Positions 1 to 24,025 of a stretch of DNA of 64,000 bases are shown piece after piece. A program made the position numbers and the translations under genes. Source of the DNA: a virus; the IMG/VR virus record IMGVR_UViG_3300020049_016021. One strand, given 5' to 3'. Every line of letters begins with the position of its first letter. Within the stretch, counting starts at the first letter, position 1. The notes beneath the pieces were generated by a model, which did not search any database, was not told where the DNA came from, and saw only the letters and a program-made list of their open reading frames with translations.

Positions 1-7
1 TACACTT

Positions 8-41
8 CCTGGGTAGGGAAACTTGCCCAGGATTTTTCTTT
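8..41 (+). terminator. Rho-independent terminator closing an upstream plus-strand transcript
   Basis: 6-bp GC stem CCTGGG(8-13)/CCCAGG(26-31) followed by ATTTTTCTTT. Confidence 0.4.
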
Positions 42-61
42 AACCTTTAACGAAACATGAT

Positions 62-277
62 ATGCGCGATCTCCGCTACAGAGCTATTTGGGAAAACCCA
101 AGAATTGAACAGACCCAGGAAGCAATTGAAGCTTGGGAACAACAGGCTAATCGTAAATTTCAAGCTAATATTGCCAAAAACATGGTTCGATTAGAACTGC
201 GAGAAGCTTGGAAAAACACAAACCGAAAACACCTGCGATCTCCAAAAGCTAAGAAACGAGGAGGCCCAAAAAAGTGA
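62..277 (+). CDS. Hypothetical small basic protein
   Basis: ORF with ATG start; Lys/Arg-rich C-terminus; TGA stop. Confidence 0.45.
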   Translation: MRDLRYRAIWENPRIEQTQEAIEAWEQQANRKFQANIAKNMVRLELREAWKNTNRKHLRSPKAKKRGGPKK

Positions 278-355
278 TTGAAAAATTGAAGGTGGTCATG
301 TTTAGAGGCTCTGTCGCAATGATAGGGCCTCTTTTTCTTTGTAAACAACACATCA

Positions 356-745
356 ATGATTAAATACCCAAAGTTTTCAAAATGCCCTCTCCTGCAAAAG
401 GACGCGGAGAGTGTTTATTACAATAAAGTCGTCCTTCCGTTATCAAAAGGAAAGCGTGTCTCTCAACTTGAGATTGCAGACCTGGTTACGACTCTCAAAG
501 CTAAGGCTGAAAAAGCTTTAGAAGCGAGAAATACCTGTGAAAACGCTGTAATCTTACAGCAAGCTGAACAAAAGCGCCGAAGTCTGAAAAGACTATCCTC
601 CACTGAACGAGCTGACAGAAATGCCGCTCGTAAACGCCGAAAGGCCCAAAGAGAAAAACAGTTCAAAGAACAGCAAACAATCAAACAACTTACCACTGAG
701 GCAGAAGCCTTGGTGAAGAAGTACAAATCACAACCATCCTTATAA
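356..745 (+). CDS. Hypothetical basic coiled-coil protein
   Basis: 129-aa ORF; TAATG stop-start overlap with next gene. Confidence 0.5.
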   Translation: MIKYPKFSKCPLLQKDAESVYYNKVVLPLSKGKRVSQLEIADLVTTLKAKAEKALEARNTCENAVILQQAEQKRRSLKRLSSTERADRNAARKRRKAQREKQFKEQQTIKQLTTEAEALVKKYKSQPSL

Positions 746-1239
746 TGCAACAAAAATTCATCTTTTGCCTATTGGGCCTAATGCTCACTGCCTTCCTGCC
801 CGCACAAAGTCTCACCTATTCGGTGGACTATTCAATTACCGGAATGAATCCAGAACAAAGTTCTCTGCGGGAAGCCTACCGTATTCCATGGACGCAGCGT
901 GCTGCGAATCTTCCACAACCTGTCATCCAAAATACCTTGTTTGCACTCGACGTACAGACAGGTTCAATGGATCTGTACCTGTACAAGACTTCCATCGCCG
1001 AGCCATCATTGCTCGGTGAAGCATATGATCGTGCCATTGGTATTCATAAGTACTGGTACAATTATGGATCGTGTGATAATTCACCAGAGTACCAAGTTGT
1101 TTGCTATGAAAGGCTTGGAGAATACCATCTTACTGTCACCCAGTGCGGAAACACCATCCTTTCGATGGGTAATCCATACTTAAAAATCGCTTTTGAACCA
1201 TGGAACAACAACCTGACGCATTTGCTGTCGGTGTTTTAG
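745..1239 (+). CDS. Hypothetical secreted protein (N-terminal signal peptide)
   Basis: Hydrophobic N-terminus MQQKFIFCLLGLMLTAFLPAQS; 164 aa. Confidence 0.5.
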   Translation: MQQKFIFCLLGLMLTAFLPAQSLTYSVDYSITGMNPEQSSLREAYRIPWTQRAANLPQPVIQNTLFALDVQTGSMDLYLYKTSIAEPSLLGEAYDRAIGIHKYWYNYGSCDNSPEYQVVCYERLGEYHLTVTQCGNTILSMGNPYLKIAFEPWNNNLTHLLSVF

Positions 1240-1442
1240 CATTGTTCCTTTCTTTCGGTGTTTTCTTAGCCTATCACTCGTATAGGCTAAGAACCCGAGG
1301 GTACATGCGAAACACAATCAATTCAGGCTCAAGAGATCCAAAGACACATTACGCGAATCAACAAAATCAAGGAAAAGTATCCTTTCTTGTAATTTTATTG
1401 GCTGTATTTGCGCTTTATGTTCTCTGGAGATTTTTGAGTTAA
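1200..1442 (+). CDS. Small membrane protein (2 predicted TM helices)
   Basis: 80-aa ORF with two hydrophobic stretches. Confidence 0.4.
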   Translation: MEQQPDAFAVGVLALFLSFGVFLAYHSYRLRTRGYMRNTINSGSRDPKTHYANQQNQGKVSFLVILLAVFALYVLWRFLS

Positions 1443-1460
1443 CCTTTTAAATTCTTTAAA

Positions 1461-2204
1461 ATGATTTTAGCACTGATATTGTTAGTATACGCGTCATTTG
1501 GTCTATTACTGATGGCCTCTCTTGTTGTAATAGGTGACAGAATACACGACCCTACTCTAAGATGTCCTGGTGAAAGCTTTGTGAATTTCGCCCGATTGTA
1601 CAAGGAGGCAATTCTGAATTTCGGAGCAAATTGGTTCTACAAGCCATTTGCCATTTCAGATATTGCTGGCGCAACTATACTATTGCTGCTTTGGCCAGTA
1701 ATTAGCTTCTTCTGGATTTTCCAATTACTTGTTGATCGTTACGCAAACGATTATCATAAGTGGATAAAACTGGATGAAACACGTTATATTGCACAAGGGC
1801 CTAATGGGCACTACCTATACAATAAACGGAACAAAGTACTCAGGGGGATGCTTCCAACCGAAGTAAAAGTACTAATTCTAGACATGTACTATTATAACAC
1901 GGTTCTACCAAAACGTTTTGCGATCTTTGGATTGTTTAAAGACACTGCCTTTAAGCCTGATGCGAACCGACCATTTTTCGACTGGTCTATGGATGCTCTT
2001 CAACTTCCAGAGTTATTTGATCCAAAAGATCGCGTACATCTGGTACATATTATGCGAAAGCATCGTGTCCAGATGTCTGGTACTAGGGCAACTTATGCTG
2101 AATGGGCATCCCAAGCGTTTGGAACGTATCCTTTTGGGCATCATTACGCCAGTGTTCTAGGAAGATTTCTTTTCAATTACCGCAAATATTTGAACAACTT
2201 ATGA
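1461..2204 (+). CDS. Membrane-anchored hypothetical protein
   Basis: 247-aa ORF; N-terminal TM; ATGA overlap with next gene. Confidence 0.5.
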   Translation: MILALILLVYASFGLLLMASLVVIGDRIHDPTLRCPGESFVNFARLYKEAILNFGANWFYKPFAISDIAGATILLLLWPVISFFWIFQLLVDRYANDYHKWIKLDETRYIAQGPNGHYLYNKRNKVLRGMLPTEVKVLILDMYYYNTVLPKRFAIFGLFKDTAFKPDANRPFFDWSMDALQLPELFDPKDRVHLVHIMRKHRVQMSGTRATYAEWASQAFGTYPFGHHYASVLGRFLFNYRKYLNNL

Positions 2205-2794
2205 GCACAATATTAATAATACTCATCCCATTCATGCCCTTTGCCATCTACATGCTGTATAACTTAGCCACAACCTCAGTACCTTCTGGTTACATCCGGC
2301 TACCTAAGTTGTACACAACAGTAAATGGGCAACCAGCTCCGTACTTGTACATAAGCTATCCAGAAGGTACTGGAGGTCTTCTGTATGCAACACTAACATC
2401 TGAAGCTGCCTTCATTAAAATGGAGGATTTACGGTATAATCTACTCGATACCTATATTCGAGAAAGTACCAAATCTCCTTTTAATAAGGATGTTGTGACG
2501 CTTGAACGCTTCGCAAATAAGCACCTAAACTTCAATATTAGGGCCGCCAAATATGCTTTTACAGTTACCAGGGTACAACTCATTGCTAATTTCACTCCAG
2601 AGATGCGTAGTTTCGTTTCTGAGCTACTTTTGGACTATTCAGCGGTAGATACCCTTGCCACCTATAAAAGTGTCTTAGAACGCGAATTAAGGGGCTCTGA
2701 TAACCCTTACGCTGTAGACATCCTCCAACAAATTTCACGCCTATACACTAATGTACTATGGATGCCCTACAAAAAGTCAGAACCGAAGCTTTAA
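2201..2794 (+). CDS. Hypothetical protein (start at ATG 2201, inside track ORF 2102..2794)
   Basis: ATG at 2201 overlaps the TGA of the upstream gene (ATGA); hydrophobic N-terminus. Confidence 0.5.
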   Translation: MSTILIILIPFMPFAIYMLYNLATTSVPSGYIRLPKLYTTVNGQPAPYLYISYPEGTGGLLYATLTSEAAFIKMEDLRYNLLDTYIRESTKSPFNKDVVTLERFANKHLNFNIRAAKYAFTVTRVQLIANFTPEMRSFVSELLLDYSAVDTLATYKSVLERELRGSDNPYAVDILQQISRLYTNVLWMPYKKSEPKL

Positions 2795-3105
2795 GCCAGA
2801 TCTACCAGAAGAATACATTCACTGTTCTTGGCGCTATTGTAGTGCTAAAAATGATGAATGACGCAGCTTCCAGGTTAATCTGGAACTCTATCCATTACTG
2901 GCTAGACAAGGGTATCTTGATTGACTTTGACCAACTACAGCGGAAATTTGAAGCTTCTAATGGAGCTGACTATAATTTTTGGTGTATTACGACTGAGGAG
3001 GTATTGATTAACACTAGTTGGTCAAACCCAAAATCATTCTATGCTATAGACCGCGAAGCTGCGGTAGATTATGCTGATAAGGTGTTGAACCTATCAGTTG
3101 CCTGA
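2758..3105 (+). CDS. Hypothetical protein
   Basis: 115-aa ORF. Confidence 0.4.
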   Translation: MDALQKVRTEALSQIYQKNTFTVLGAIVVLKMMNDAASRLIWNSIHYWLDKGILIDFDQLQRKFEASNGADYNFWCITTEEVLINTSWSNPKSFYAIDREAAVDYADKVLNLSVA

Positions 3106-3526
3106 TGTGCATACCAATCCCCTAGCCCATTCCAAGGCTACCTGTCGGATTGACTGTTTGTTTCATAATAAAGATTTGTTTTTGTAGCAGTGCGATAGTA
3201 AACCCACTGTAGAAGGAAACTGCTTTATCGTAAGACAGCTGAACGCCACGATTGAATACGTACTAGGAGAGTTTTTAGGTAATACAACCTACCTCTTCTA
3301 CAGATCACTACAAATTTATATTCTTTATCTAGTTCTTATTGGTATCGGAGAAAACCTCAAAAAAAGAGAAATCCGACTTCTGAGCCACCTCGTGTTAGGC
3401 TATTCAAACCTACTGCTTGGCTGATCCAGGATTGCTCTCTTTCCTGGCCAATACACAAAGATACGAAATAAATTGAGGTGTTGCCAAATTTTCAACTTTT
3501 AACCTTTACACCGTAAATCTACTACC
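3106..3526. promoter_or_regulatory. 420-bp AT-rich noncoding region with 9-bp inverted repeat (CTGTAGAAG ... CTTCTACAG)
   Basis: No ORF of 60 aa or more in any frame; inverted repeat about 75 bp apart; lies between two gene clusters. Confidence 0.3.
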
Positions 3527-3985
3527 ATGTATGAGACAAGCCTCATAACAGCTTGGGGAGCTAAGCAACCCCAAAACTTCATTCAAGAACCACTCAGAAA
3601 CATTACGTATCTGCGTAATCGTTTGGTGCTTAACATTCAATATGCCTGCGCAAACAGAACGTGCACAAAAGACGTGTCTAAAGCGATAAATGAGGCAAAA
3701 AAAGAGTTAAACTCGCTCGCAGTACGCGTACCCCGCCAAATGCAAGACCTCATTGACGAGGTTTCTGAGGTAAAAGCCAGGATTTTGGCTGCACCTGCCG
3801 AAGAATTCATCACCGTAGGAAAATACTTTCCTGAGAGTGAACACGCTGATGTCATTGATGCCTGGGTAGCTTTTTACGCTCCCAGCGGTAAATTCGATCT
3901 TTTAACCGGCTTAACCGCCCTCATCGAGGTGACACGGTTCGGTCTAAATTTCAACTATGGAACAGATTCCACAGAAAATAATTGA
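3527..3985 (+). CDS. Hypothetical protein
   Basis: 152-aa ORF. Confidence 0.5.
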   Translation: MYETSLITAWGAKQPQNFIQEPLRNITYLRNRLVLNIQYACANRTCTKDVSKAINEAKKELNSLAVRVPRQMQDLIDEVSEVKARILAAPAEEFITVGKYFPESEHADVIDAWVAFYAPSGKFDLLTGLTALIEVTRFGLNFNYGTDSTENN

Positions 3986-4241
3986 GAATCCCGCCATGGT
4001 CGGCATTCTTGCCGTTTGTTTTGTTGTTGGAATTACGCTTATCCTTAGAGGACTGAGGCCTCGTCTCACGAAAAAACAATTGGCAAAAAAGAAGGCGCTC
4101 TATCAACTAGAGATTGCCCTCGACCAAAACAAATCCACCTTTCTGTCCTCTGTGGAGGCGGCATATGACCGTTACCAAAATTACCTTGAGTTACTAAAGG
4201 CCCTCGAGAAAGAAGAGGCGGTGGATAAACTTGGAAGTTAA
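3957..4241 (+). CDS. Small membrane protein
   Basis: 94-aa ORF with one TM segment. Confidence 0.4.
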   Translation: MEQIPQKIIENPAMVGILAVCFVVGITLILRGLRPRLTKKQLAKKKALYQLEIALDQNKSTFLSSVEAAYDRYQNYLELLKALEKEEAVDKLGS

Positions 4242-4389
4242 AAATACTGTAATCAACCGGACTATCGAGAATTCAAGCATAAAGATGTTTGTGTTCTTAG
4301 GGTAGTACTTAATTTACTTCGGCGCTAGTTTTGTCCACACTAGGGAAGTTCTTGAGTCTACTCATTCTTTTCATCTTTAAATTTTACAT

Positions 4390-5193
4390 ATGAAACAAAT
4401 TATCAAAATTACGTCGTCGAAATCAACCGAAGAAAAGGCAGTACCGACGTTTGTCCATTGGTTGTATGCTACTGTTGCAATCTTTCAAAGATTGTCGGGC
4501 ATTCAAAAGGCCAACGTTGGCGTGTTCCTTGGATTAACCCTTATGTGCGCTATGACCATAGGTGCTTGGGTGAGTATAAATACCAACCCACCAAAAACAA
4601 TCATTGTACCTGTCGTTCAAGCTTCAAGTGAGAAGGCTGACGCAGAAGAAGAGATTGTACCCGAAATTCCGCAAACTTCGGTATTTGTAGGAGAGAAAGA
4701 AACTCTGGATGAAAATCCACCAGAACCAGCTCCGGCAAAGAATTTAACCGCTTACAAAACGCAGGCGCAGGCGTATATTCAGAAGTACAAAGCTGCGGCA
4801 CAGGCTGGTTGGAGAAAACATGGAGTACCCGCAAGTATCAGTTTAGCACAAGGTCTGATTGAATCGAGAGCAGGAACTAGTAAATTAGCGGTGCAAAACA
4901 ACAATCATTTTGGCATGAAGTGTTTTTCAAAAAAGTGTGGTAAGGGGCATTGTACCAATCATAAGGACGATACCCACAAAGACTTCTTTTTGAAATTCAA
5001 ATCTCCTGCACAAAGCTGGGAAGCCCATTCAAAGCTGTTGTCATCGGGACGATATGCAAAATTAAAGAAATACGGACGCGACTACGTTCGTTGGGCCCAA
5101 GGATTAAAGCAAGTAGGTTATGCAACGGATAAAAGTTATGCTAATACACTAATTAGTGTAATCAAACGGTATAACCTAACTAAGTATGATTAG
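4390..5193 (+). CDS. Peptidoglycan hydrolase, GH73 N-acetylglucosaminidase domain (FlgJ-like), N-terminal membrane anchor
   Basis: C-terminal motifs GVPASISLAQGLIESRAGTSKLA...NNNHFGMK...YATDKSYANTLISVIKRYNL match the glucosaminidase (PF01832-type) signature; TM segment near residues 40-65. Confidence 0.7.
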   Translation: MKQIIKITSSKSTEEKAVPTFVHWLYATVAIFQRLSGIQKANVGVFLGLTLMCAMTIGAWVSINTNPPKTIIVPVVQASSEKADAEEEIVPEIPQTSVFVGEKETLDENPPEPAPAKNLTAYKTQAQAYIQKYKAAAQAGWRKHGVPASISLAQGLIESRAGTSKLAVQNNNHFGMKCFSKKCGKGHCTNHKDDTHKDFFLKFKSPAQSWEAHSKLLSSGRYAKLKKYGRDYVRWAQGLKQVGYATDKSYANTLISVIKRYNLTKYD

Positions 5194-5213
5194 GCTTACA
5201 AAATCCCCCTAAG

Positions 5214-5279
5214 GTGTGGTTCTAATGGTGATTATAGGTATTATATACTTATAGAAGGTTCGAATCCGTCCCACACCCC
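5214..5279 (+). tRNA. tRNA-like gene, atypical (66 nt); probable anticodon TAT (Ile-UAU) if folded canonically
   Basis: Perfect 7-bp acceptor stem GGTGTGG/CCACACC; canonical T-arm GAAGG-TTCGAAT-CCGTC; anticodon stem TAGGT/ACTTA with loop ATTATAT; D-arm reduced (4-bp stem, 4-nt loop GGTG), 2-nt variable loop; no CCA encoded. Confidence 0.4.
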
Positions 5280-5292
5280 TAAATTTTAAAAC

Positions 5293-6330
5293 ATGAAGAT
5301 AAACATGGAATTAACGGAAGTGAAAGCTGAATTACAGCAGAGGTACTTCCAAAGTGACCCTGCCATAAATGCGGTCATACGTGCCTTGGCACTAAAACAA
5401 AACTGTATTCTGTATGGTCCACCTGGCCATGCAAAATCTGGTATTGTCGAAACGGCCCTGAAACTCTATTTGGGTGAGGTTGCGTTCTACCAGCAGGTGT
5501 ACCAGACAAACGGCGGCATGGAAATGCCTACAGAACCCTTTGTTGGTGCCTTGGACTTGAAACGGTACCGAGAAGACGGTACTATCAACTACCAATTGGA
5601 GCATACGATATATATGGAGAAGGAGTACGCCATATTGGAGGAAGGCTTGGACGCTCCCCCGTACGTGCTCGAAACCATGAAGCAGCCATTGATGTCAAAA
5701 GTACTTTGCATCAACAATGTTTGTTCCCCAGTAAAATTACAGTCGATGTTCATCTGCACAAATCACAATCCAGTTGAATGGGCGGGTGAGGTCGACAGTT
5801 ACAAAGCGCTTTTGAAACGTTTTCCACACAGAGCTCATGTAGAATGGAGCAAGTATGACATTACCACCTGGGATGCTTATTTAACCCATTTAGGTCGACC
5901 TGACAAACTTGTGGCGGCTATGCTTGAAAAATGCCATCAAATGAATTACCCAATGGCACCGAGGGAAGCGCTAGCCTTCCAAGACCTTATCAAGTTTGAA
6001 GGTTTAAGTGGTGTTGAGACTTTCGATGACATGCATGAGAAGCCAGAAGTGTATGAGGAGCTAAAGAAGATGATGGCTTTGGTTCCTTTTGTAAGAGACT
6101 TGGAAGAAGCCGAAAGTCTAGCTCTTCAAGCAAAATTTGCCTTCGAACGAAACGATCCAAATTTTATTGCTCATTTTGGAAAGGCTAAGAGCGCTCTTGA
6201 AAACATAAAGGGGATCCCAACAACGGGTGTCTACACTGACCGTATGCGAAATACAGCCATGAATCTTTCACAGCTGTTAAAGGACCACGTTCAAAAAGTT
6301 GCAAATGCAACAGAAATCCCAAAATTATGA
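5293..6330 (+). CDS. MoxR-family AAA+ ATPase (CobS-like)
   Basis: Walker A variant GPPGHAKSG, Walker B ILEEGLDAPP, then FICTNHNPVE (MoxR/CobS pattern); ATGA-coupled to the downstream VWA gene. Confidence 0.65.
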   Translation: MKINMELTEVKAELQQRYFQSDPAINAVIRALALKQNCILYGPPGHAKSGIVETALKLYLGEVAFYQQVYQTNGGMEMPTEPFVGALDLKRYREDGTINYQLEHTIYMEKEYAILEEGLDAPPYVLETMKQPLMSKVLCINNVCSPVKLQSMFICTNHNPVEWAGEVDSYKALLKRFPHRAHVEWSKYDITTWDAYLTHLGRPDKLVAAMLEKCHQMNYPMAPREALAFQDLIKFEGLSGVETFDDMHEKPEVYEELKKMMALVPFVRDLEEAESLALQAKFAFERNDPNFIAHFGKAKSALENIKGIPTTGVYTDRMRNTAMNLSQLLKDHVQKVANATEIPKL

Positions 6331-7457
6331 ACCAAGCTTATAACCTAGATCCTGAGCTCCTAAAAAAAGCTGCAGAAAAGGCCAACCATTACATTTCCAC
6401 AGGTTATCTGACCACGGCAGCTGCTGTTGCGAGTCATTTAACAATGGATAATGATCCATATTCAGTAGCAATGCAGGTAAGCGGTGGGAAGTCTACGAAA
6501 AGCATGGCACTCGATATGGCTATTGCTGGAAGTAAGGTAAAAGGAGATGTCTATACACTAGCAAGAGTTCTTGCAGAACAGTATATGATAAAGCAGCATA
6601 AAGATTCTTCTCAAGAAGAATTTGAAAAAGCTGTAAAAGAGGCCATTGAGGAAGCCGAAGCTGAAAAAGAAATGATGCTTCCTGGGGGACATAAGGGTGG
6701 AGAAAGTATCAGAAACTTTTTTCAGGGTTATTCTCTTCCTTTTGGCGCTGTAGACGAGGTTCCAGAATACATCAAGCAAAGTGGAGCCATGGTGTTTGCT
6801 AAACAACAAACGAATAGTAAAAAAGTTGAGGGTAAACCCAAGAGTGCCGTTCACTTTAGAAGAATCCGCAGACTAGAGGAGATTGCTCGCGTAATCCCTA
6901 AACAGCTGTGTGTTGATGACGACGTGTTTGAGTTAATGCTTGCTCAAAGACAATTGATTGGTAAATTTCCTCTGCGCTCAAAACAAGATCTCAAAACAAT
7001 GGTTATTTTGTTAGATGATTCTGGCTCTATGAGTGCTGACACACGTGTGCCAAAACTAACTGCTATTTTAGAGTCGCTATTTAAAGAGGTTGAAAAAGAA
7101 AGCTTAAGGTTATTAATCGCTCCATTTGAGTATTCACTTGGTCCGGCCTTTGAACTAAAAAATGCCCATAGCGTTAATGAGTTTAAAAAAATTGTGACAG
7201 ATGGTTCTGGTGGAAACACTTATCTAAATCACATACTACCCAAAGTCATTACTGATTTGCAAAAAGGAATGTTTGGAACCTTTAAAGTTCCTGTGGACAC
7301 ACGCATACTCATAATAAATGATGGTGAGGATCCCCCTGGAGAAATGAAACCCGCTGCTCCAGTTCATGCATTAAGTTTGGGTGAATTCAACAAAGACTTG
7401 AGTGTTCTTTGTAAAGCTAGTGGCGGGGATTATACCATGTATAAATCTATAACATGA
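6327..7457 (+). CDS. von Willebrand factor A (VWA) domain protein, CobT-like partner of the MoxR ATPase
   Basis: MIDAS motif VILLDDSGSMS plus downstream T and DGSGG elements; adjacent and translationally coupled to the AAA+ gene. Confidence 0.65.
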   Translation: MNQAYNLDPELLKKAAEKANHYISTGYLTTAAAVASHLTMDNDPYSVAMQVSGGKSTKSMALDMAIAGSKVKGDVYTLARVLAEQYMIKQHKDSSQEEFEKAVKEAIEEAEAEKEMMLPGGHKGGESIRNFFQGYSLPFGAVDEVPEYIKQSGAMVFAKQQTNSKKVEGKPKSAVHFRRIRRLEEIARVIPKQLCVDDDVFELMLAQRQLIGKFPLRSKQDLKTMVILLDDSGSMSADTRVPKLTAILESLFKEVEKESLRLLIAPFEYSLGPAFELKNAHSVNEFKKIVTDGSGGNTYLNHILPKVITDLQKGMFGTFKVPVDTRILIINDGEDPPGEMKPAAPVHALSLGEFNKDLSVLCKASGGDYTMYKSIT

Positions 7458-7756
7458 TTGAACTGTTCACATATCTGAACACCTTCAGTTCTTGTGCCAA
7501 GTATCGTCCTGGATTTCGTACTCCTGACGGTGTTTTATGGGTATTAACCCACACACAACCGACCGAAGGTGTCCAGACCATATTGATTGAAGCCTCGCTA
7601 ATTGAAAGCGAGCATTTTAAACCAAAAACCGAAACTCTGTACCTAACCCCAGCCGAAAACCAAAAAGCTGCCAGATATAATAATATTTCTGGTGGAATAT
7701 TAAAAATCGATTTTTCACTATTAAACAACAATATAAATGAGTACCAAAAAGTATGA
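7454..7756 (+). CDS. Hypothetical protein
   Basis: 100-aa ORF; ATGA overlap with upstream gene. Confidence 0.35.
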   Translation: MIELFTYLNTFSSCAKYRPGFRTPDGVLWVLTHTQPTEGVQTILIEASLIESEHFKPKTETLYLTPAENQKAARYNNISGGILKIDFSLLNNNINEYQKV

Positions 7757-8459
7757 ATTTACCCGAGAAGAGCTAGGCCTCTCTCCTGAAGCCAATCTTC
7801 CAGTTGTTATCGCTGCGCTAAACAATGAGCGTGCAGGCATACCAACGGAAGTAGACAAGCCCTATTACGCACTGGCCAACTGGCCTACCATCCGCCACAA
7901 GTTTGCCTCCCTGGTGCTGCAAAGTGATTTGACAGAAATGCCATTTTCTGGTACCCCAGAGATTACTGTGGATAACCTGAAAGAAATTCAGGACGCCGTG
8001 ACCATGTATCACGAAGACAAAAGTCCAGAAGCTCAGGAGCTTGCTATTTCCACTCTTCGTGAAGCCGGCCTCACTTATGAGGCACCAGTACCTGCAACGG
8101 AAGAAGAACTCCAAACCCTGGTAACTGAAGAATCTCAAGATGCCCCAGAAGTTACCGAAGAAGAGGCCGTACCTGAACAAACGCCTGTACCGGCGGATAA
8201 CGCCATTGTTGCTGCGAAAACACCAGTGAATGTGTTACCAGCGCAAATGAATGATGCACTGGTAAGTGCCAAAACTGCCCTGGAACATTCCAAAAACCTT
8301 CGAACTGCGTTGGATCAAGCTCGGGAGGCAGCTGATGCTCAAGCTGAAGCTTTGGTAAACGCTACCCTTGCCATTGCTGACACCATTTTGAAGGCAAATT
8401 CTGTCGAAGCTGAAATCCCAGCAGCCATCGAAGAGGCAGAAATTGCCGTTGAGGTGTAG
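7737..8459 (+). CDS. Hypothetical acidic Ala/Glu-rich protein
   Basis: 240-aa ORF; strongly acidic. Confidence 0.5.
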   Translation: MSTKKYEFTREELGLSPEANLPVVIAALNNERAGIPTEVDKPYYALANWPTIRHKFASLVLQSDLTEMPFSGTPEITVDNLKEIQDAVTMYHEDKSPEAQELAISTLREAGLTYEAPVPATEEELQTLVTEESQDAPEVTEEEAVPEQTPVPADNAIVAAKTPVNVLPAQMNDALVSAKTALEHSKNLRTALDQAREAADAQAEALVNATLAIADTILKANSVEAEIPAAIEEAEIAVEV

Positions 8460-8477
8460 AAGAAACGAAACATTATT

Positions 8478-8503
8478 GTTCATGGGGGCGGAGTAACCCT
8501 CTG
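8478..8503 (+). promoter_or_regulatory. Strong GC hairpin (GGGGGCGGAG/CTCTGCCCCC) in an intergenic gap; possible terminator or RNA stability element without a U-tract
   Basis: 10-bp stem with one G-U pair, loop TAACC, between genes 7737..8459 and 8524..9147. Confidence 0.3.
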
Positions 8504-8523
8504 CCCCCTTCAACCAATTAAAA

Positions 8524-9147
8524 ATGAGTTTAAAAATGTTAACCACAGAGTGGGGCCAAAATCAGATTCAATTTTCTGATGACAAATCCTACTACATACC
8601 CAGCGCGCTACGAGTTGGCATTGGTGATAATAATCCATATCTAACTATGCGGTGTACTCATCGTGGTGCTGGAGCCAAATTGGAGGAAAAAGTAATAGCC
8701 GTAAAAGCTGATTCAGCTGAATTGGCTGTTTTTGTCGAGGCCTCCAGCGCAAAGAATGGGGAATGGTGCGCTACCGGCGAACTGTATTTCCATAATGGTG
8801 AGATTTGGGTACGCAATATTTCATTTGAAAAAAGCGTACAAGTTATCGAGCAACGTGTCTCCATCGTTATAGGGGGAGAATCCATTGAGCGCAGCGTACT
8901 ACAGATTGTCTACATGCAAGATTTGAAAATGCAAATCTTGCGGAATGGGGAGGTTTACTATACGCAGAGTGCTACGGCTATTTGCACTGCCGGCATCTTG
9001 GTAAATGAGATCAAACTCGCTTCCAGAACCGGCAAGGATGTACGGATCGATCACAAGACAGTACTGCCCAAAGCTGCTCTTGCGGTGTATGATGCTGAAA
9101 TCTTGCAGCAAAAAATTATTGCCTTCACCAATACACCGGTGCTATGA
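8524..9147 (+). CDS. Hypothetical protein
   Basis: 207-aa ORF. Confidence 0.5.
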   Translation: MSLKMLTTEWGQNQIQFSDDKSYYIPSALRVGIGDNNPYLTMRCTHRGAGAKLEEKVIAVKADSAELAVFVEASSAKNGEWCATGELYFHNGEIWVRNISFEKSVQVIEQRVSIVIGGESIERSVLQIVYMQDLKMQILRNGEVYYTQSATAICTAGILVNEIKLASRTGKDVRIDHKTVLPKAALAVYDAEILQQKIIAFTNTPVL

Positions 9148-9500
9148 TATTACTGCATGGTAAGTTACAGCTGCAAACGGGGGCAAACAGAAGTGTGCTG
9201 ATTCTTAAAATTCCTGTTAGTGATAACCAGTCAAGGGCAATCACAAATCAAGACGAGTTAAAGGAAACAATACAGGCCATGCTGCATACAGGTGAGAGAC
9301 TTAGACGGTTTAACCTAGAGTCCTCTAGCAAGGGGGAATATTTTGGTTCTATAATTATAGAGCTAGAAATATTTTCCTTAGTGCAAATAGCAACTGGGCT
9401 CTCACGTTTAAAAAATTTAAATCGGAAAGTAAATGCTCAAGTTCGTATTTCGAGTGGGGCTAGTTTTTCTCGCCGCCATTTTACTTTTTGGAAGAACTAG
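9144..9500 (+). CDS. Hypothetical protein
   Basis: 118-aa ORF; ATGA overlap upstream; overlaps next gene by 68 nt. Confidence 0.3.
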   Translation: MILLHGKLQLQTGANRSVLILKIPVSDNQSRAITNQDELKETIQAMLHTGERLRRFNLESSSKGEYFGSIIIELEIFSLVQIATGLSRLKNLNRKVNAQVRISSGASFSRRHFTFWKN

Positions 9501-9933
9501 TGAAGAGCCTGCACAATTCAGTGCTTATGGCGAAACAAGTTGGGAGAATCTCTTTAGAAAAATGGAGTCCCAAGGATTTGAATTCCCAAGAGTAGTGATA
9601 AGTCAGATGATCCTAGAAACAGGTTCTTTTACTTCTGATATTTACCAACATAATAAAAATGTTTTTGGTATGAAGAAGAGAAAAGATAGGACCTATTCTA
9701 CAGAGGTGCGCGCAGGGCATTCGGCTTACAAAAATGCAGCACTGTCTTTGGCAGAATACTTGAAGTACCAAAAAATGATTCTCCGTTTGGCTCGTAAAAA
9801 ATACAAAATCGAGACAGAGGATGATTACTTATGGTTACTAGATCACTTGCCACACTGCAAGGGTTGTAGATATGCTGAAGATCCTCTTTACACGACGAAA
9901 TTACGAGCTATTATTGCTCGCGACCTAAATTAA
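9433..9933 (+). CDS. Secreted glucosaminidase-like (GH73-like) peptidoglycan hydrolase
   Basis: Signal-peptide-like N-terminus MLKFVFRVGLVFLAAILLFG; motif VISQMILETGSFTSDIYQHNKNVFGMK resembles the glucosaminidase core. Confidence 0.55.
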   Translation: MLKFVFRVGLVFLAAILLFGRTSEEPAQFSAYGETSWENLFRKMESQGFEFPRVVISQMILETGSFTSDIYQHNKNVFGMKKRKDRTYSTEVRAGHSAYKNAALSLAEYLKYQKMILRLARKKYKIETEDDYLWLLDHLPHCKGCRYAEDPLYTTKLRAIIARDLN

Positions 9934-9939
9934 GATCTG

Positions 9940-10128
9940 CCCCGTGGGATGTCTCCCGTCTCTAGGGTTTTGCTTCACTGGGAGTGTTCCCTTCCCCCGA
10001 ATTTGGCCTGACCGCGCGGATCCTCGCAAAGGTCCCCACATATCTTTCTGGCTGCTCCATCAGCGGCTGGGACCTGGTATTCTCGGGATAAGTAGTAAGG
10101 ACTGGTACCGCCTTAGGACGGGGAGGGA
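9940..10128 (+). ncRNA. GC-rich structured noncoding element (candidate ncRNA or regulatory RNA)
   Basis: About 58% GC island in a roughly 38% GC genome; two near-identical GNNN hairpins GGGATGTCTCCC and GGGAGTGTTCCC; palindrome CCGCGCGG; long-range pairing CCCCGT(9942)/ACGGGG(about 10120); the only track ORF over it is Pro/Gly/Arg-rich and implausible. Confidence 0.3.
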
Positions 10129-10158
10129 ATTTTTGTTAACAATTAAACTAAAATCTAT

Positions 10159-11556
10159 ATGCAACTTATGCTATGGCTGATTATGATAACGGTTGCCGTT
10201 ATTATTATTTTGATGGTCCTCTATTACAAAATTACCTTAAAGGTAAATGAATCGACGACCATTCATCAAGAAGTCACAACGGCCTTACACCAGGAAACAA
10301 ATTCATTGTTGGAGGAACTCATCAAAAAACTTGGCGCAAGGTTTTCCAGAAAAGAAGCGGCAGTCAGCTCGTTACTGAAAATGGAAATTTGGAACACACT
10401 CATCCTATCGAACGCCAGAAACGTCCCACTGGAATTATTTCTCCTTGAATTCTTGAAAACTACCAACGGGCAGATAACCGAAGAGATACTGCACGAATCA
10501 CCGGAAGATCCATTTGCCGATGACAGTGGACGTTCGCAATTATTCAAAATCGAAACTGCGTCGGGAACCGAAAATCTCTCGGACACGGTAATCTTAGAAT
10601 TTATTACTGATTGGGCTCCGCTTTCAGCTATCGAAGATTCAGAAAAATTTGTCCCTTATGCCAGGGACAAAGATTTTGTATCAGTAATTAAGGGTCTCAA
10701 GATTTACACACCGAAGGACTGCCAGGGAGATTGCCCGCTTGACACAATGGCTCTTTGTCAGCGTGTGGCCAATTCTGCCGAACTGCGTGTAAAGTACCTG
10801 CCAAAGGTATTTGACAAAAGCATGATGGCTGTGTGGTCGTACAATGACAAAAGCAAAACGTGGACCTATGGCACGATGCCAGTTGTTCCCGTGGAGGCAC
10901 CAATACTGGATTTATGTTATCCTGTCCTACAAACCAAAGAGACAACGCCAAAGTTGGTTCCGGTGCGCAGGCTACTAGAAACCATTGGACAACAGTGGAA
11001 AGAAAATGTTCCTGTGCGTATTGCCTTTTTAGGTAAAGCTGGTACTGGTAAGAGCCGTCTCCTTCGACTGTTAGCGCACAAGGCCAATGAATGTGGTCAA
11101 AAGGTAGCAACCGTTACCGTAGGTGCCCTAGAGAAGTTGTTGGAGACTTCGTCAGCACCCTTTGCTGACTTGGTTCGAAACTCCGACAAAGGAGGGGTTG
11201 TTGTGTTCATTGATGAGGTATCCGGCATTCCGGCAAAACTCATTGCGGACTTAAACAGCGCAATTGAAGGCATTGTGGACCAACCTCAGTTGTCTTTCGT
11301 CCTTGCGGGCACAATTGACTCTGGTCACGTGGTTGACGAAACACTTGTACGCCAAGGTCGTATGGACCTAACCGTTGAAATTGGTCTTCTGTCGGTCGAA
11401 CAAACTGCGAAATTATACAACGCACTGGTTGCTAAGTATCCTGATTTGAAATGGGATCCTTTGAAAGAGGGAGAATCCATGACTTTGGGAGGAGTTTTTG
11501 GTCTAGGTAAGAAACTCCAATTTGCCGAAAAGCTGGAGAAAGCTTTGTCGCTGTAA
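10159..11556 (+). CDS. Membrane-anchored P-loop NTPase (AAA-type; possible DnaC/IstB-like loader)
   Basis: N-terminal TM; Walker A IAFLGKAGTGKS; Walker B VVVFIDEVSG. Confidence 0.55.
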   Translation: MQLMLWLIMITVAVIIILMVLYYKITLKVNESTTIHQEVTTALHQETNSLLEELIKKLGARFSRKEAAVSSLLKMEIWNTLILSNARNVPLELFLLEFLKTTNGQITEEILHESPEDPFADDSGRSQLFKIETASGTENLSDTVILEFITDWAPLSAIEDSEKFVPYARDKDFVSVIKGLKIYTPKDCQGDCPLDTMALCQRVANSAELRVKYLPKVFDKSMMAVWSYNDKSKTWTYGTMPVVPVEAPILDLCYPVLQTKETTPKLVPVRRLLETIGQQWKENVPVRIAFLGKAGTGKSRLLRLLAHKANECGQKVATVTVGALEKLLETSSAPFADLVRNSDKGGVVVFIDEVSGIPAKLIADLNSAIEGIVDQPQLSFVLAGTIDSGHVVDETLVRQGRMDLTVEIGLLSVEQTAKLYNALVAKYPDLKWDPLKEGESMTLGGVFGLGKKLQFAEKLEKALSL

Positions 11557-11592
11557 AAGACCATATTTTATACAACTTTTTGGTTATCACCT

Positions 11593-11627
11593 AGGAGAAG
11601 AGCTCAACCCTCTTCTCCTAATTTTTT
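11593..11627 (+). terminator. Rho-independent terminator
   Basis: Perfect 10-bp stem AGGAGAAGAG/CTCTTCTCCT, loop CTCAACC, followed by AATTTTTT. Confidence 0.6.
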
Positions 11628-11632
11628 CTGCT

Positions 11633-12337
11633 ATGACATTAAAAGCTGGAGACCCAATAGATGTTGGTGCTCCGATGGGCACAAAAAGGACTAGAAGATT
11701 CCCAGACACAAATACAGAGCAGTCGTTTGTAACCCAAGCGGTTGCTTATATAAATACGGGAGTTTTTACACAATACGAAACAAAAGGAGGAAAAATTTGG
11801 TTAAAAACTAATGAATACCTAAATCATAGCCACCTTATTCTAGATTTTTCTTATTATCCCCTAGGCCTAGGAGCTTTGGGTGAACGTAGTTATATGCGGC
11901 CGGAACATCTTCCATTTAGTCATCCTGGCTGTATAGTTGGACTTCAGGCCACACAACTTTGTACTCATAGGCTTTCAGGAGAGAAGTGCAGATTACGCAT
12001 AGCTGAAAATTTTTACGCTAATGGTGAATACACTCTTACGCCTATTAATGGTAAAGAAGAAACTAGAACTTTTACAAGTCAAAAATGGGGTGATAACTAT
12101 AGAGAATTTTTAGCTCATTTAGAATCCTTAAAAGGCTCTACTCTCTGCGGGAAAGGGCGTATTCGTGGATTTATTCTTTACGATACATTTGATACTGAAA
12201 ATATTGGAAGATACGTATCATCTCTAATTTTACCAAACAACGACGCTAGGCAGATTCAGAAAGAAGCATACGTTATAGTAGTGTTTGAGGACCTTACTTT
12301 AGCGTACTTTCCAACTTATTTAATAGAGAAGCCATGA
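11633..12337 (+). CDS. Hypothetical protein (start moved to ATG 11633; track ORF 11522.. reads through the terminator hairpin)
   Basis: ATG at 11633 just after the terminator; in frame with track ORF. Confidence 0.5.
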   Translation: MTLKAGDPIDVGAPMGTKRTRRFPDTNTEQSFVTQAVAYINTGVFTQYETKGGKIWLKTNEYLNHSHLILDFSYYPLGLGALGERSYMRPEHLPFSHPGCIVGLQATQLCTHRLSGEKCRLRIAENFYANGEYTLTPINGKEETRTFTSQKWGDNYREFLAHLESLKGSTLCGKGRIRGFILYDTFDTENIGRYVSSLILPNNDARQIQKEAYVIVVFEDLTLAYFPTYLIEKP

Positions 12338-12861
12338 AATTAACGATCCACCATCTATCAAATGATGGAAACCAACGTATAAAAACCCTGCACGCTAAAG
12401 AAGCTATTATTGACTGGGGATACGAACTAACGTCAGGAAATCCTGAGCCGGCAATAAAACTGATAACCGAGACAACAGAAAAGCAGTATGTACTGCTTGG
12501 CATACATAATATTGAGACAATATTTAATGTAGTAAACGAATTAATTAAAACAAACGCGGCTGCATTGTCCTTACCCATAGATATATTTGACCCAAGCCTG
12601 CCTTCTCACAGTGCATGCACTTGGAGTCTTGAAGATTATTTTGATTGGTTACATCCACATCTATATCAAAGAACTGAAGCTTTTGCTTTGTTCTCTAGCA
12701 CAGAAAAGAGACAAATTTTAGCAAAAGATTATTCCCCTATAACCAAAAGTCGTAAAAAATCACTCGCTCCTCATTGGAGAGCTAGATTACCAATCCCACA
12801 AAAAGATATTTCTAAACTAAAATTTTTTAATGAAATACTTGACAATCGCGTTATTATTTAG
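12334..12861 (+). CDS. Hypothetical protein
   Basis: 175-aa ORF; ATGA overlap upstream. Confidence 0.5.
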   Translation: MKLTIHHLSNDGNQRIKTLHAKEAIIDWGYELTSGNPEPAIKLITETTEKQYVLLGIHNIETIFNVVNELIKTNAAALSLPIDIFDPSLPSHSACTWSLEDYFDWLHPHLYQRTEAFALFSSTEKRQILAKDYSPITKSRKKSLAPHWRARLPIPQKDISKLKFFNEILDNRVII

Positions 12862-13183
12862 TATCTTTGCACTCTCATGCGGAGATCCTGGCGACGAAGC
12901 TTATGAGCTTCCAATTCGTCCAACAGACACCATCCCAACAATCGAGATTGAACCCTCACAAACGGTTACTTGGGACCATAGTGTACTAAGTTTGCGCCTC
13001 CCAGAGCTAAACGCAAAACCGCATTGTGAGAATTTGCGAATAGTGCTTGAAGTACTGATAAAAGGGGATTCGTTGCATAGTTACACAGTCACACAACAGT
13101 GTAACCCCACAATACCCACAGTAGCTAAGAAAGCTCCAGTGAAACCAGTAGTTAAACCTAAACCAGCCGTTAAGAAAAAATGA
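12830..13183 (+). CDS. Putative lipoprotein with Lys/Pro-rich C-terminus
   Basis: Signal plus lipobox-like LSCG; C-terminal KKAPVKPVVKPKPAVKKK. Confidence 0.45.
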   Translation: MKYLTIALLFSIFALSCGDPGDEAYELPIRPTDTIPTIEIEPSQTVTWDHSVLSLRLPELNAKPHCENLRIVLEVLIKGDSLHSYTVTQQCNPTIPTVAKKAPVKPVVKPKPAVKKK

Positions 13184-13638
13184 AGCGAATAGCTATGGCT
13201 CAGTATGTCCGCTGGCGTTACCCAGACCCAGAAGGAATAGAGGACTATTACTCGGGGACCCCTGAAGAGAAGCAAAGGAGAAGTAAGAGAGAGATGACAC
13301 GTCTTGAGAAACAAGCCTACAACCAATTGCTTGATAGTGTTTACAACAACAAGACGAGAAAGAATTTTTCTATTCAACTCTCTACAAAAGAAAAATTGGC
13401 CTTAATTTGTGCCACTGATCTATACACCAAAGATCTGTACAAACTAAAACTCCTCAGAAAACAAGTCAAGAATGGAAATAAGCGAAAAGGCCATCGTGAA
13501 ATTGGGTCTCCCATCCATTACCGAGTGGAAAGATATTCCATTCCCGTACCAAAACCAAGGTTGGAGGACATACGGCGAATTCGTCGACAAGCTCTCGAGT
13601 ACCTTGCGAATCCGCATATCCGAGACTATCGTCTGTAA
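13180..13638 (+). CDS. Hypothetical basic protein
   Basis: 152-aa ORF; overlaps ORF 13472..13798 in another frame (one of the two may be spurious or frameshifted). Confidence 0.4.
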   Translation: MKRIAMAQYVRWRYPDPEGIEDYYSGTPEEKQRRSKREMTRLEKQAYNQLLDSVYNNKTRKNFSIQLSTKEKLALICATDLYTKDLYKLKLLRKQVKNGNKRKGHREIGSPIHYRVERYSIPVPKPRLEDIRRIRRQALEYLANPHIRDYRL

Positions 13639-13798
13639 TCGCAAGATCATTCATCGGGTAGAATTACACCAGGCAACTTTGGGGTTATGTGTCGTATATG
13701 ACGCAAATCGATCTGAAGCCTATAAAAAAGCGTTGCGTAAATGCTATCGACTTCTAAAACGTTATTACTCTTTGAACCTAGCGGAAGCCAATATTTAA
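13472..13798 (+). CDS. Hypothetical protein (overlapping alternative frame)
   Basis: 108-aa ORF overlapping both neighbours. Confidence 0.25.
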   Translation: MEISEKAIVKLGLPSITEWKDIPFPYQNQGWRTYGEFVDKLSSTLRIRISETIVCNRKIIHRVELHQATLGLCVVYDANRSEAYKKALRKCYRLLKRYYSLNLAEANI

Positions 13799-14295
13799 CG
13801 CAGGTTCACCAAATAAAGACCCTATTTCAAAGGGAAGAATGGTATGTAGAAAAACTGCAGCCCTACACGAAGATATATAACCCGAATGCGGTGATACTTA
13901 TTCCAGATACTGCTGGGTTGAATGTGAACATGGAGTATGTGAAAACAAAGTTTCCTCCTATATTCCCGCCACAAGATCCAGGCCTTGAGTACTTTAGGTT
14001 AAATTTTTTGCATTACTATGTAAAGAAGAAAATGCCCATTCTCGGCATAGGGACTTCAAGTTTTCTTATCTTTGCTGAGGTCTGTAAGGGAAACCTAATC
14101 TTTGGAGCTGACGGATTATCCTGGGGAGCCACTAAACTCCCAAATGTAGATACAAATACTAACAACTTCGTGGGCCCCTATTGTGGTGGTTTATTGAATT
14201 TTAGTATAAATGAAGACCTTTGTGAATTTGCAGAGGCTCTCTTGCCAAGGCCGGATGGCGGAGAGGAAGTAGAACCGGCCCTTGTTTTAGTATGA
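13741..14295 (+). CDS. Hypothetical protein
   Basis: 184-aa ORF ending in TGA with ATGA overlap to the next gene. Confidence 0.45.
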   Translation: MLSTSKTLLLFEPSGSQYLTQVHQIKTLFQREEWYVEKLQPYTKIYNPNAVILIPDTAGLNVNMEYVKTKFPPIFPPQDPGLEYFRLNFLHYYVKKKMPILGIGTSSFLIFAEVCKGNLIFGADGLSWGATKLPNVDTNTNNFVGPYCGGLLNFSINEDLCEFAEALLPRPDGGEEVEPALVLV

Positions 14296-14588
14296 ACAAA
14301 TCGCTAGCGGCATATGTTAGAGACCGCTTCTGAGTACTTAGAAGAGTCAAAGACAAACAGCCTCTGAATGTTTCGTATACAATAGAAGGACTTAAATGGT
14401 CTAGTAATAGGCTAGGAAAGGCCCTCTTTTTTAAAAAAGCCATTATCTCTAATGGTAAGATTATTGGGGACTTGTCTCCATCTGAAGAGGTTTATTACGA
14501 GTTGTTTGATCCTATGGAACACAACAACTTAACTCTTCAAAGAGCCGAATTGAGGTGTTTAGACAAAGCTTTGCGGCTTTGCTACTAA
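14292..14588 (+). CDS. Hypothetical protein with one in-frame TGA (14331); first TGA-recoded gene; weak HNH-like motif (EHNNL)
   Basis: ATG 14292 to TAA 14586-88; open across TGA 14331-33 with plausible composition; missed by the standard-code track. Confidence 0.4.
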
Positions 14589-14645
14589 ATAGGCTACTAC
14601 CCGGAACCTCTAAGTGACCGGTCTTTTCACATTAATATATTTATT

Positions 14646-15248: not shown

Positions 15249-15289
15249 CGGGATTGGGAGAGGGTAATACTTCTCCCTAATTCCAACTT

Positions 15290-18463: not shown

Positions 18464-18541
18464 GCCGAGGAGAACCTAGTTGTGAGTGGTGTGGGGGAAT
18501 ACACGGCAATATTGGCCTTGAATTAATCCACACCTTCTCAC
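18451..18541 (+). promoter_or_regulatory. Candidate programmed -1 ribosomal frameshift site (A_AAA_AAG) with downstream stem-loop
   Basis: Slippery heptamer 18451-18457 in the zero frame of gene 17366..18463; the -1 frame is open into the zinc-ribbon gene; hairpin GTGAGTGGTGTGG(18483-95)/CCACACCTTCTCAC(18528-41). Confidence 0.3.
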
Positions 18542-18555
18542 GCCCTCCTTGGCTT

Positions 18556-19173: not shown

Positions 19174-19183
19174 GAGAGATAAG

Positions 19184-24023: not shown

Positions 24024-24025
24024 TT

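Follow-up and report, generated by a model that had tools for sequence, protein, structure and literature searches.

The viral record IMGVR_UViG_3300020049_016021, a stretch of 64,000 nucleotides (nt) read on one strand and referred to below as the window, carries a rightward arm in which two adjacent groups of genes on the same strand appear to give different meanings to the codon TGA. In the first group (block 1, 1-14295) TGA is evidently a stop, while in the replication block that directly follows (block 2, 14292-31060) it is evidently a tryptophan codon placed within the polymerase, helicase and primase genes. The reading preferred here, to which a probability of about 0.7 is given, is that the meaning of TGA divides the rightward arm, that a phage-encoded suppressor tRNA with the anticodon UCA, or tRNA(UCA), would be the agent of this division, and that suppression would be leaky, in competition with the host release factor RF2. 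The window is composed of the following parts:

1-34202, plus strand: rightward arm of plus-strand genes, comprising block 1, block 2 and a tail
31197-34202, plus strand: tail of the rightward arm, six genes, no sense TGA, TGA stops at 32916 and 34200
34257-63994, minus strand: virion arm, encoding giant proteins of 1444, 1148, 4095, 632, 917 and 1406 amino acids (aa)

Two meanings of TGA along the rightward arm

Modelled as 24 tiled plus-strand genes (coding density 0.93), block 1 ends 12 of its genes in TGA, 7 in TAA and 5 in TAG; not one of its 4510 codons is an in-frame TGA, and all 57 tryptophan codons are TGG. The initial annotation, which had taken TGA for a real stop in the first 14.3 kb, is borne out by these counts, as it is for the six stop-start overlaps of the form ATGA that it had listed, to which a seventh at 6327 can be added:

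2201 (2201-2204), 6327, 7454, 9144, 12334, 13180 and 14292, plus strand: ATGA stop-start overlaps (n = 7), read directly in the sequence

Treating TGA as sense in block 1 moves the coding density only from 0.937 to 0.949. The extensions that the genes would thereby acquire, put at 4 to more than 20 codons in the initial annotation, actually run from 1 to 72 codons, and 6 of the 12 are of five codons or fewer. Several genes of the block have Pfam or PHROGs assignments:

4390-5193, plus strand: glucosaminidase endolysin
5293-6330, plus strand: MoxR-like AAA ATPase
6327-7457, plus strand: VWA protein
9433-9933, plus strand: second glucosaminidase
10159-11556, plus strand: AAA ATPase

Orthologues were aligned from two syntenic relatives, L014 (PolA 69% identical) and L015 (PolA 49%). 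The L014 orthologues of the MoxR-like ATPase and of the genes at 8524-9147 and 11522-12337 have TGA at the same aligned position, and the tails that follow it are of other lengths and unrelated to those of the window; the L015 orthologue of the VWA protein and the L014 orthologue of the 13741-14295 gene carry a TAA or TAG stop within a few residues of the window's TGA. Because the orthologues terminate at the same aligned place and the tails are unrelated, the conserved proteins of block 1 end at TGA, which by this alignment evidence is a genuine stop in the block.

Block 2 shows the reverse. Its 26 genes end in TAA (19) or TAG (7) and never in TGA, and 13 of them hold a total of 24 in-frame TGAs beside 47 TGGs, so that TGA makes up 24 of 71 tryptophan codons here and 0 of 57 in block 1 (Fisher p = 9e-8). 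The per-gene comparison of stop codons proposed in the initial annotation gives an equally sharp contrast, with 12 TGA stops in 24 genes of block 1 and 0 in 26 of block 2 (Fisher p = 2e-5). With TGA as sense, the coding density of 14295-31060 rises from 0.779 under the standard code to 0.969, and tryptophan reaches the same frequency in both blocks, 1.26%, only when TGA is counted as tryptophan. The genes that need TGA to be read through, with one intron, include:

14292-14588, plus strand: first recoded gene, 98 aa, TGA at codon 14 (14331); the L014 orthologue has TGA at the same position
14646-15248, plus strand: membrane-anchored protein with an HxxxxxxD...HxH motif, TGA at codons 70 and 137, no Pfam hit
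15480-17366, plus strand: DNA polymerase A with 3'-5' exonuclease and polymerase domains (PF01612 and PF00476), TGA at codons 8, 30, 259 and 626
19166-20350, plus strand: SF2 helicase, TGA at codons 15 and 61
23025-24023, plus strand: DnaB-like ATPase, TGA at codons 45 and 288
24026-24991, plus strand: AAA_24 (Sak4-like) ATPase, split by an intron, one TGA per exon (24146 and 24662)
about 24311-24646, plus strand: group I intron in the AAA_24 gene (Rfam RF00028, 64.4 bits at 24311-24639)
25965-26918, plus strand: Toprim primase, TGA at codons 49 and 183
28691-29176, plus strand: DUF1064-like protein, four TGAs
29064-30089, plus strand: PDDEXK nuclease, two TGAs

Every core replisome enzyme thus contains at least one TGA and would require one to four read-throughs, while the adjacent UDG gene has five TGGs and no TGA. 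In DNA polymerase A, codon 259 lies inside the PF00476 hit, is flanked by the PF01612 and PF00476 hits, and corresponds to a tryptophan that is invariant in 16 of 16 homologues; in the same alignment codons 30 and 626 are mostly tryptophan. Public gene calls cut this gene in two, and some homologues in the database start at "MLQ" or end early, which suggests that their gene calls have likewise been truncated by TGA. The two pieces of the AAA_24 gene (24026 to about 24340 and about 24647 to 24991) correspond to an uninterrupted orthologue in L014. The motif of the membrane-anchored protein seems to us to resemble those of LAS/M15 peptidases.

All 16 window TGAs that align with block-2 orthologues of L014 face TGA (11) or TGG (5), and six window TGGs face TGA there; against L015, the aligned TGAs meet 6 TGA, 5 TGG and 5 codons for Val, Leu or Phe. 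Since aligned TGAs pair with TGA or TGG in relatives, TGA acts as a synonym of TGG, and in block 2 it is, judged by codon alignment, tryptophan. The orthologue alignments thus uphold the view of the initial annotation that a single strand carries two translational dialects.

The switch is abrupt and lies where it had been placed, at about 14.29 kb: a mere 38 nt separate the final TGA stop (14293) from the earliest sense TGA (14331). The junction is itself an ATGA overlap with no intergenic spacer, and because this overlap joins the two blocks, a single transcript for both is probable. A sigma-70 promoter scan did no better than on shuffled sequence, leaving no visible promoter at the boundary, and a shared leader motif, TTAACCTTTA, is not enriched. 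At the other end, the recoded block had been drawn to 34 kb; recoding in fact ends at about 31.06 kb, where a 136-nt spacer with a terminator-like hairpin parts block 2 from the arm tail, whose genes return to TGA as a stop. Upstream, the TGA-stop block reaches about 3 kb beyond the start of the window.

The virion arm of the window has no in-frame TGA in 9849 codons, no TGA stop, and no TGA among 69 tryptophan codons. In about 25 virion-arm genes of the window and its close relatives, including the large terminase (TerL), portal and major capsid protein (MCP) genes, in-frame TGA is restricted to two homing endonucleases. These belong to a capsid gene in three pieces (L017 2665-6036, equal to about 12640-16010 of L025). 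Homing endonucleases of the HNH and LAGLIDADG types, with two TGA-Trp codons each, are encoded in the two group I introns that interrupt it (Rfam 26.7 and 40.8 bits), while the capsid exons have none. In this lineage TGA-Trp has never spread into the virion genes, bar the homing endonucleases in the capsid gene.

The arrangement is not peculiar to one assembly. Close strains (98-99.9% identical), among them independent assemblies from several samples, keep every TGA, and for that very reason are uninformative as to its meaning. L014 and L015 show the full pattern, with the switch at the same gene pair as in the window; in a further relative, L023, the replication block is recoded and the upstream block is without TGA stops. 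The standard code holds in two others, L021 and L022, whose polymerase, helicase and DnaB genes, in a syntenic replication block, are intact; TGA ends 1 of 14 genes in the upstream block and 4 of 18 in the replication block of L021, and 7 of 15 and 3 of 12, respectively, in L022. As these two hold TGA stops in both blocks, the recoded lineage has purged all such stops from the replication block and kept those of its neighbours.

Some features of block 1 deserve mention in their own right. The MoxR-like ATPase and VWA genes (5293-7457) form an ATGA-coupled pair kept in all relatives examined; a search for related loci with the MoxR-like protein as query returned no relative. The genes at 7454-7756 and 7737-8459 (100 and 240 aa) correspond to one open reading frame (ORF) of 351 aa in L014 and 369 aa in L015; in the window lineage they lie in different frames (+1) with the junction ...CAA AAA GTA TGA, and the same split recurs in four independent assemblies, so the pair may represent either one gene that has been split or programmed +1 frameshifting at UGA. 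Between the endolysin and MoxR genes, a tRNA-like element (5213-5278, plus strand) has a perfect 7-bp acceptor stem, a GGUUCGAAUCC T-arm, a poor D-arm and the anticodon UAU, which excludes it as the suppressor; Rfam scores it at 17.6 bits as a tRNA, ARAGORN calls it tRNA-Ile(tat) at a relaxed threshold only; an unusual tRNA-Ile and a signal for RNA processing are both conceivable. Farther upstream on the same arm, about 2.8 kb before the window, lies a borderline match to the Pistol ribozyme (L003 6825-6881, plus strand; 35.6 bits against a gathering score of 34.5). Among 20 small proteins of block 1 and the region upstream, Pfam found no deaminase, release factor or aminoacyl-tRNA synthetase that could be a candidate for switching the code.

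The tRNA(UCA) locus

With default settings ARAGORN reports no tRNA in the window or in L001, L003, L004, L009, L010, L014, L015 and L017, and at relaxed settings it returns mostly false positives within coding regions. The suppressor gene is intact in L025, whose virion arm is 99.8% identical to that of L001, itself 98-99% identical to the window: a transfer-messenger RNA (tmRNA; Rfam 53 bits) is followed 124 nt on by a 98-nt tRNA with the anticodon UCA. The same cluster, in which a gene encoding a 165-aa protein accompanies the tmRNA and the tRNA(UCA), stands at the head of the leftward arm in L025, L036, L040, L041 and L042, the last of which comes from the same contig as the recoded relative L015, and a covariance model built from these tRNAs finds a further copy in L037. 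The gene for the 165-aa protein has a TGA at a conserved tryptophan; Pfam, consulted for SmpB, gave no hit for its product.

The strain of the window continues in L010/L026 (identity to L003 100% over 3450 nt), and its cluster lies there on the opposite strand, upstream of the window by about 13-14 kb. L026 has the tmRNA (76 bits) and is without an intact tRNA; the covariance model matched a 3' half, with the 5' half 722 nt upstream. The two halves are separated by a 722-nt group I intron (Rfam RF00028, 50.0 bits, equal to the gathering score, E = 1e-11) that contains an ORF for an HNH endonuclease. This intron interrupts the anticodon between positions 34 and 35 (...CUU/CAAAUGG...AAAGUG/CAAAACUAG, slashes marking the splice sites), with the 5' splice site after U and a G as its last base. 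Splicing is predicted to create the exon junction ...CUAGUCUU/CAAAACUAG... and a product of 97 nt that folds as a cloverleaf with a long variable arm. Because the intron splits the gene, tRNA finders miss the suppressor of the window strain; custom scans for a T-arm with acceptor and for an anticodon arm missed it as well, and ARAGORN fails even on the spliced form, which has an unusual T-loop.

Across the seven sequences of the tRNA(UCA) family, 98% of the cells in paired positions can pair, 11 of 17 pairs change on both sides, and no sequence departs from CUUCAAA in the anticodon loop. On this comparative evidence, the strain and its relatives have a phage-encoded suppressor tRNA with the anticodon UCA. 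The suppressor that the initial annotation had conjectured thus exists, although it lies outside the window. A second tRNA-like candidate, L003 3158-3222 (minus strand), was rejected as a suppressor: its anticodon is CAU, and the match (Rfam 29 bits) has a truncated D-arm and three mismatched acceptor pairs. No gene for RF1, another release factor or tryptophanyl-tRNA synthetase (TrpRS) was seen in the phage.

Two forms of the tRNA(UCA) can be told apart. The short form, in L036 and L042, has A1-U72, G73 and an anticodon arm that is tRNA-Trp-like by the usual identity rules; the long-arm form is found in most copies. In L037 a tRNA-Ser(UGA) (730-813) is accompanied by the tRNA(UCA) (2482-2578), and their anticodon arms differ only at the middle base of the anticodon, a hint that the long-arm suppressor may derive from, or have swapped sequence with, a tRNA-Ser.

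The tmRNA adjoins the tRNA(UCA) in five of the six contigs that have the latter, downstream of the gene for the 165-aa protein:

L010 4770-5031, minus strand (equal to L026 707-968); L025 3101-3362; L041 3364-3610; L042 6969-7296: tmRNA, Rfam up to 76 bits

The predicted tags of these tmRNAs are unusually long, at 30-33 aa, and end in ...VYA or ...YAYA. Just past the tmRNA, L026 has a zinc-ribbon ORF (929-1533) with four TGA-Trp codons, for which Pfam offers only weak double-zinc-ribbon matches and whose C-terminal motif seems to us endonuclease-like. It is followed by a duplicate of the 3' end of the tmRNA (T-arm and acceptor), and farther on (L026 3834-3940) by an RNA of 107 nt whose acceptor and T-arm domain is tRNA-like; the three look like remains of mobile-element insertions.

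Leaky suppression and its alternatives

Because a suppressor must compete with host RF2, UGA would be leaky in the infected cell, and the distribution of TGA is consistent with a genome that has adapted to this. A purine 3' of the codon is the classical context for efficient suppression. In block 2, 22 of the 24 sense TGAs have a purine as their next base (A in 13), compared with 28 of the 47 TGGs; pooled over four recoded genomes, the figures are 56 of 67 against 205 of 339 (p = 2e-4), a comparison weakened by the inclusion of orthologous codons more than once. Sense TGAs also lie towards the 5' ends of the genes of block 2, with a median relative position of 0.35 against 0.65 for TGG (p = 0.0025), and 14 of 24 TGAs against 10 of 47 TGGs fall within the first 70 codons; there, a failed read-through would cost little. 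In block 1, a TAA or TAG follows within five codons of 6 of 12 TGA stops, as compared with 6 of 42 genes ended by TAA or TAG (p = 0.004), and the four TGA stops closest to the boundary all have such a backup within three codons. The backup stops suggest that the genes of block 1 are also translated while the suppressor is present.

According to the proposed mechanism, the phage tRNA(UCA) would supply the tryptophan reading of UGA in the replication block, and purine contexts, 5'-placed TGAs and backup stops would be the means by which the genome lives with leaky suppression against RF2. All core replisome enzymes need one to four read-throughs, from which we infer that the amount of mature suppressor tRNA available may gate or throttle synthesis of the polymerase, helicases, primase and nucleases; the proteins of block 1 could be made at once. 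As to timing, the virion RNA polymerase of the crAss-like model phage phi14:2 makes the rightward replicative arm in its entirety as one early class, with tRNAs frequently placed after middle promoters (bioRxiv 10.1101/2020.03.07.982082). By analogy, the recoded replication genes would belong to the early class, the opposite of the published pattern; block 1, with its two glucosaminidase (lysis-type) genes, is for that reason not obviously early. These data can be fitted into a bolder scheme of an inverted programme, in which UGA-to-Trp suppression would gate the replisome and not the late genes, maturation of the suppressor tRNA, including self-splicing of its intron, would serve as the timer, the adjacent tmRNA would clear or tag ribosomes halted at unsuppressed UGA, and UGA would have two context-dependent meanings, probably on one early transcript. 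Taken as a whole, this scheme is tentative and rather doubtful.

Several points weigh against a partition effected by the phage tRNA. The gene sits on a neighbouring contig of the same strain, outside the window. Most copies of the tRNA(UCA), that of the window strain included, have a long variable arm and are labelled tRNA-SeC by ARAGORN, and the anticodon arm in L037 is that of the adjacent tRNA-Ser(UGA) but for one base; as a long arm is Ser- or Sec-like, charging with tryptophan is not evident from the tRNA itself. The amino acid inserted at the TGAs of block 2 is deduced from codon alignments, and timing, splicing and charging are all read from sequence. A clean temporal separation is disfavoured, because the two blocks probably share one transcript. 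Finally, the virion arm of Fpv1, a standard-code phage, also has no TGA stop in 34 genes (8 of 45 in its replication arm). The lack of TGA stops in the virion arm was considered as an adaptation to the suppressor and dropped on this account; since Fpv1 shares the trait, it is ancestral.

The alternative that survives best is neutral codon capture, in which the opal suppressor would be constitutive, TGG would drift to TGA in weakly expressed replication genes, TGA stops would persist wherever read-through is harmless, and the blocks would reflect expression level and gene turnover, not timing. TGA and TGG do interchange freely among relatives, the accessory DNA of block 1 is uneven in composition, the boundary shows neither a gap nor a promoter, L023 has simply lost its TGA stops in block 1, and the virion arm of Fpv1 lacks TGA stops without any recoding. 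Drift does not account well, however, for sense TGAs that lie non-randomly near 5' ends and before purines, for a replication block with 0 TGA stops in 26 genes where standard-code relatives keep 3 of 12 and 4 of 18, for the presence of TGA in every core replisome enzyme and in none of the five tryptophan codons of the adjacent UDG gene, or for a boundary conserved at one gene pair; neutral capture is on balance considered unlikely.

The initial annotation had also entertained the idea that the replication cassette came recently, as a module, from a recoded lineage. This would explain a switch completed within 40 nt, and the accessory region is indeed a mosaic among close strains, L025 being only 69-76% identical to L003/L010 there. 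The codon statistics point elsewhere. Relative synonymous codon usage (RSCU) in block 2 correlates with that of the virion arm at r = 0.95 and with that of block 1 at r = 0.82, and block 1 is so heterogeneous that its own odd and even genes correlate at r = 0.70; G+C at third codon positions is 0.39 in block 1, 0.35 in block 2 and 0.28 in the virion arm. The same boundary and TGA positions occur in L014 and L015 at PolA identities of 69% and 49%, and divergence ranks agree between the blocks, L014 being closest in both. Because the boundary is conserved and the codon usage of block 2 fits the virion arm, recent import is disfavoured, and the syntenic replication block of standard-code relatives makes it highly unlikely.

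Still less credence is due to a host that itself reads TGA as tryptophan (genetic code 4), with the phage merely following. Such a host would fit the use of TGA as tryptophan in replication genes and the failure to see a release-factor gene. It is at odds with the absence of TGA from 57 tryptophan codons of block 1 and 69 of the virion arm, with the 12 of 24 genes of block 1 that end in TGA, their ATGA coupling and their non-conserved tails, with a phage that carries its own tRNA(UCA), and with a context bias of sense TGAs of the kind expected under release-factor competition; moreover, the cultured relatives of the 1406-aa virion protein are Flavobacterium and Cellulophaga phages, and we know of no member of the phylum of these hosts that uses code 4. 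That the interrupted replication genes are pseudogenes or assembly errors, as their fragmentation by public gene callers might suggest, is hardly credible when independent assemblies from several samples agree on every one of the TGAs, when relatives have either TGA or TGG in their place, and when they are always in frame within intact domains.

The phage and its place among recoded phages

One public contig of the window strain measures 99,991 bp, and the G+C content of the window is about 36-44%. In the flanks, fetched via identical proteins, genes for Pfam CrAss_Ring_1 and CrAss_Ring_2 adjoin that of the 1406-aa protein, and the same arm in close relatives continues with a split major capsid protein, the portal, the large terminase and a GroEL-like gene (PHROGs). 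The 1406-aa protein has distant relatives in Flavobacterium and Cellulophaga phages. Because of the ring, MCP, portal and TerL genes and these relatives, the window is assigned to a crAss-like phage; the source is a phage of about 100 kb distantly related to those of Flavobacterium and Cellulophaga. The layout is that of crAss-like phages, with giant virion proteins, ring proteins, TerL, portal and MCP on one arm and the replication module on the other, and the host is inferred to use the standard code solely from the cultured relatives infecting Flavobacterium and Cellulophaga. A megablast comparison of blocks 1 and 2 with a phage collection gave no match. Among other features of the phage, the 4095-aa ORF (42220-54507, minus strand), among the largest of phage proteins, has a Dda-like helicase (AAA_30) segment at about residues 1240-1357; at the head of the virion arm, the gene for the large terminase is directly preceded by that of the GroEL-like chaperonin (L025 5358-6953, PHROG E = 2.5e-127); and in the divergent region between the arms, L010 11030-11650 and L003 3837-4457, from the same strain, are reverse complements at 99.5% identity, either an invertible segment or an assembly artefact.

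A cultured relative, Flavobacterium phage Fpv1 (NC_031914), shares with the window phage two arms, giant virion proteins, a split PolA, a primase, UDG, a Sak4-like ATPase and homing endonucleases. In contrast to the window phage, Fpv1 is annotated with the standard code, TGA being a stop in 8 of 45 genes of its replication arm, and neither a tRNA nor a tmRNA was found in it.

For the intron of the suppressor, the nearest parallel is found outside phages. Group I introns occur in the anticodon loops of tRNAs, for example between nucleotides 34 and 35 of tRNA-Leu(UAA) in cyanobacteria and plastids. The intron described here resembles that of tRNA-Leu(UAA) in its insertion between 34 and 35 after a U, its final G and its group I core; it differs in that its host gene is a phage opal suppressor and that it carries an HNH endonuclease ORF. 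No report of a suppressor tRNA split by an intron was found in the literature searched.

Block-wise reassignment of TGA or TAG is known in crAss-like phages, where it affects "mostly late genes" and the remaining block is as a rule dual-coded (PMC7886860; bioRxiv 10.1101/2022.06.29.495998). Like the phages of Yutin et al. 2021 and Mgcod, the window phage has a crAss-like architecture, reads TGA as tryptophan in part of its genome with in-frame TGAs aligning to TGG or TGA, and places its suppressor tRNA near the 5' end of the leftward (late) arm. Unlike them, it has a recoded replication block, virion genes without TGA, and a neighbouring block in which half of the stops are TGA. Avoidance of the reassigned stop in the non-recoded part, the mark of dual coding, is thus absent from block 1 and holds for the virion arm only, and recoding is not concentrated in late structural and lysis genes, the glucosaminidase endolysins having no in-frame TGA.

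Borges et al. found structural and lysis genes to be recoded in every clade studied, replication genes being variable (bioRxiv 10.1101/2021.08.26.457843). Their TGA-recoded Agate and Jade phages share with the window phage a suppressor tRNA, a predicted standard-code host and a partial alternative code as a translational gate; the preference of intron-borne homing endonucleases for TGA recurs here in L017 and L026. They differ in that recoding here spares TerL, portal, MCP and the giant virion proteins, in that neither an RF1 nor a TrpRS gene was seen, and in that a tmRNA accompanies the tRNA(UCA); the papers on recoded phages retrieved by the literature search make no mention of tmRNA. The Zeta crAss-like phage Lera (about 180 kb, 26 tRNAs), whose TGA-containing genes are mostly structural and lysis genes (PMC12386605), also relies on opal suppression via a tRNA-Sup(TCA), and some of its DNA-processing genes (helicase, RNA polymerase) contain TGA; in contrast to Lera, the window phage has essentially one canonical-scoring tRNA family plus the tmRNA.

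In practical terms, standard gene callers fragment polymerases, helicases and primases of this kind, as they have in public gene calls. The current view is that phages recode stops to hold back late structural and lysis genes, and the window lineage does the reverse. Should this be borne out, recoding would serve as a translational switch in a wider sense than the timing of lysis, and the phage would offer a natural case of one codon with two adjacent meanings, the conflict between them being managed by sequence context and backup stops. Block-wise recoding in crAss-like phages was already known; the differences here lie in the choice of recoded block, the frequent TGA stops kept next to it, a suppressor gene interrupted by an intron, and the tmRNA linked to that gene.

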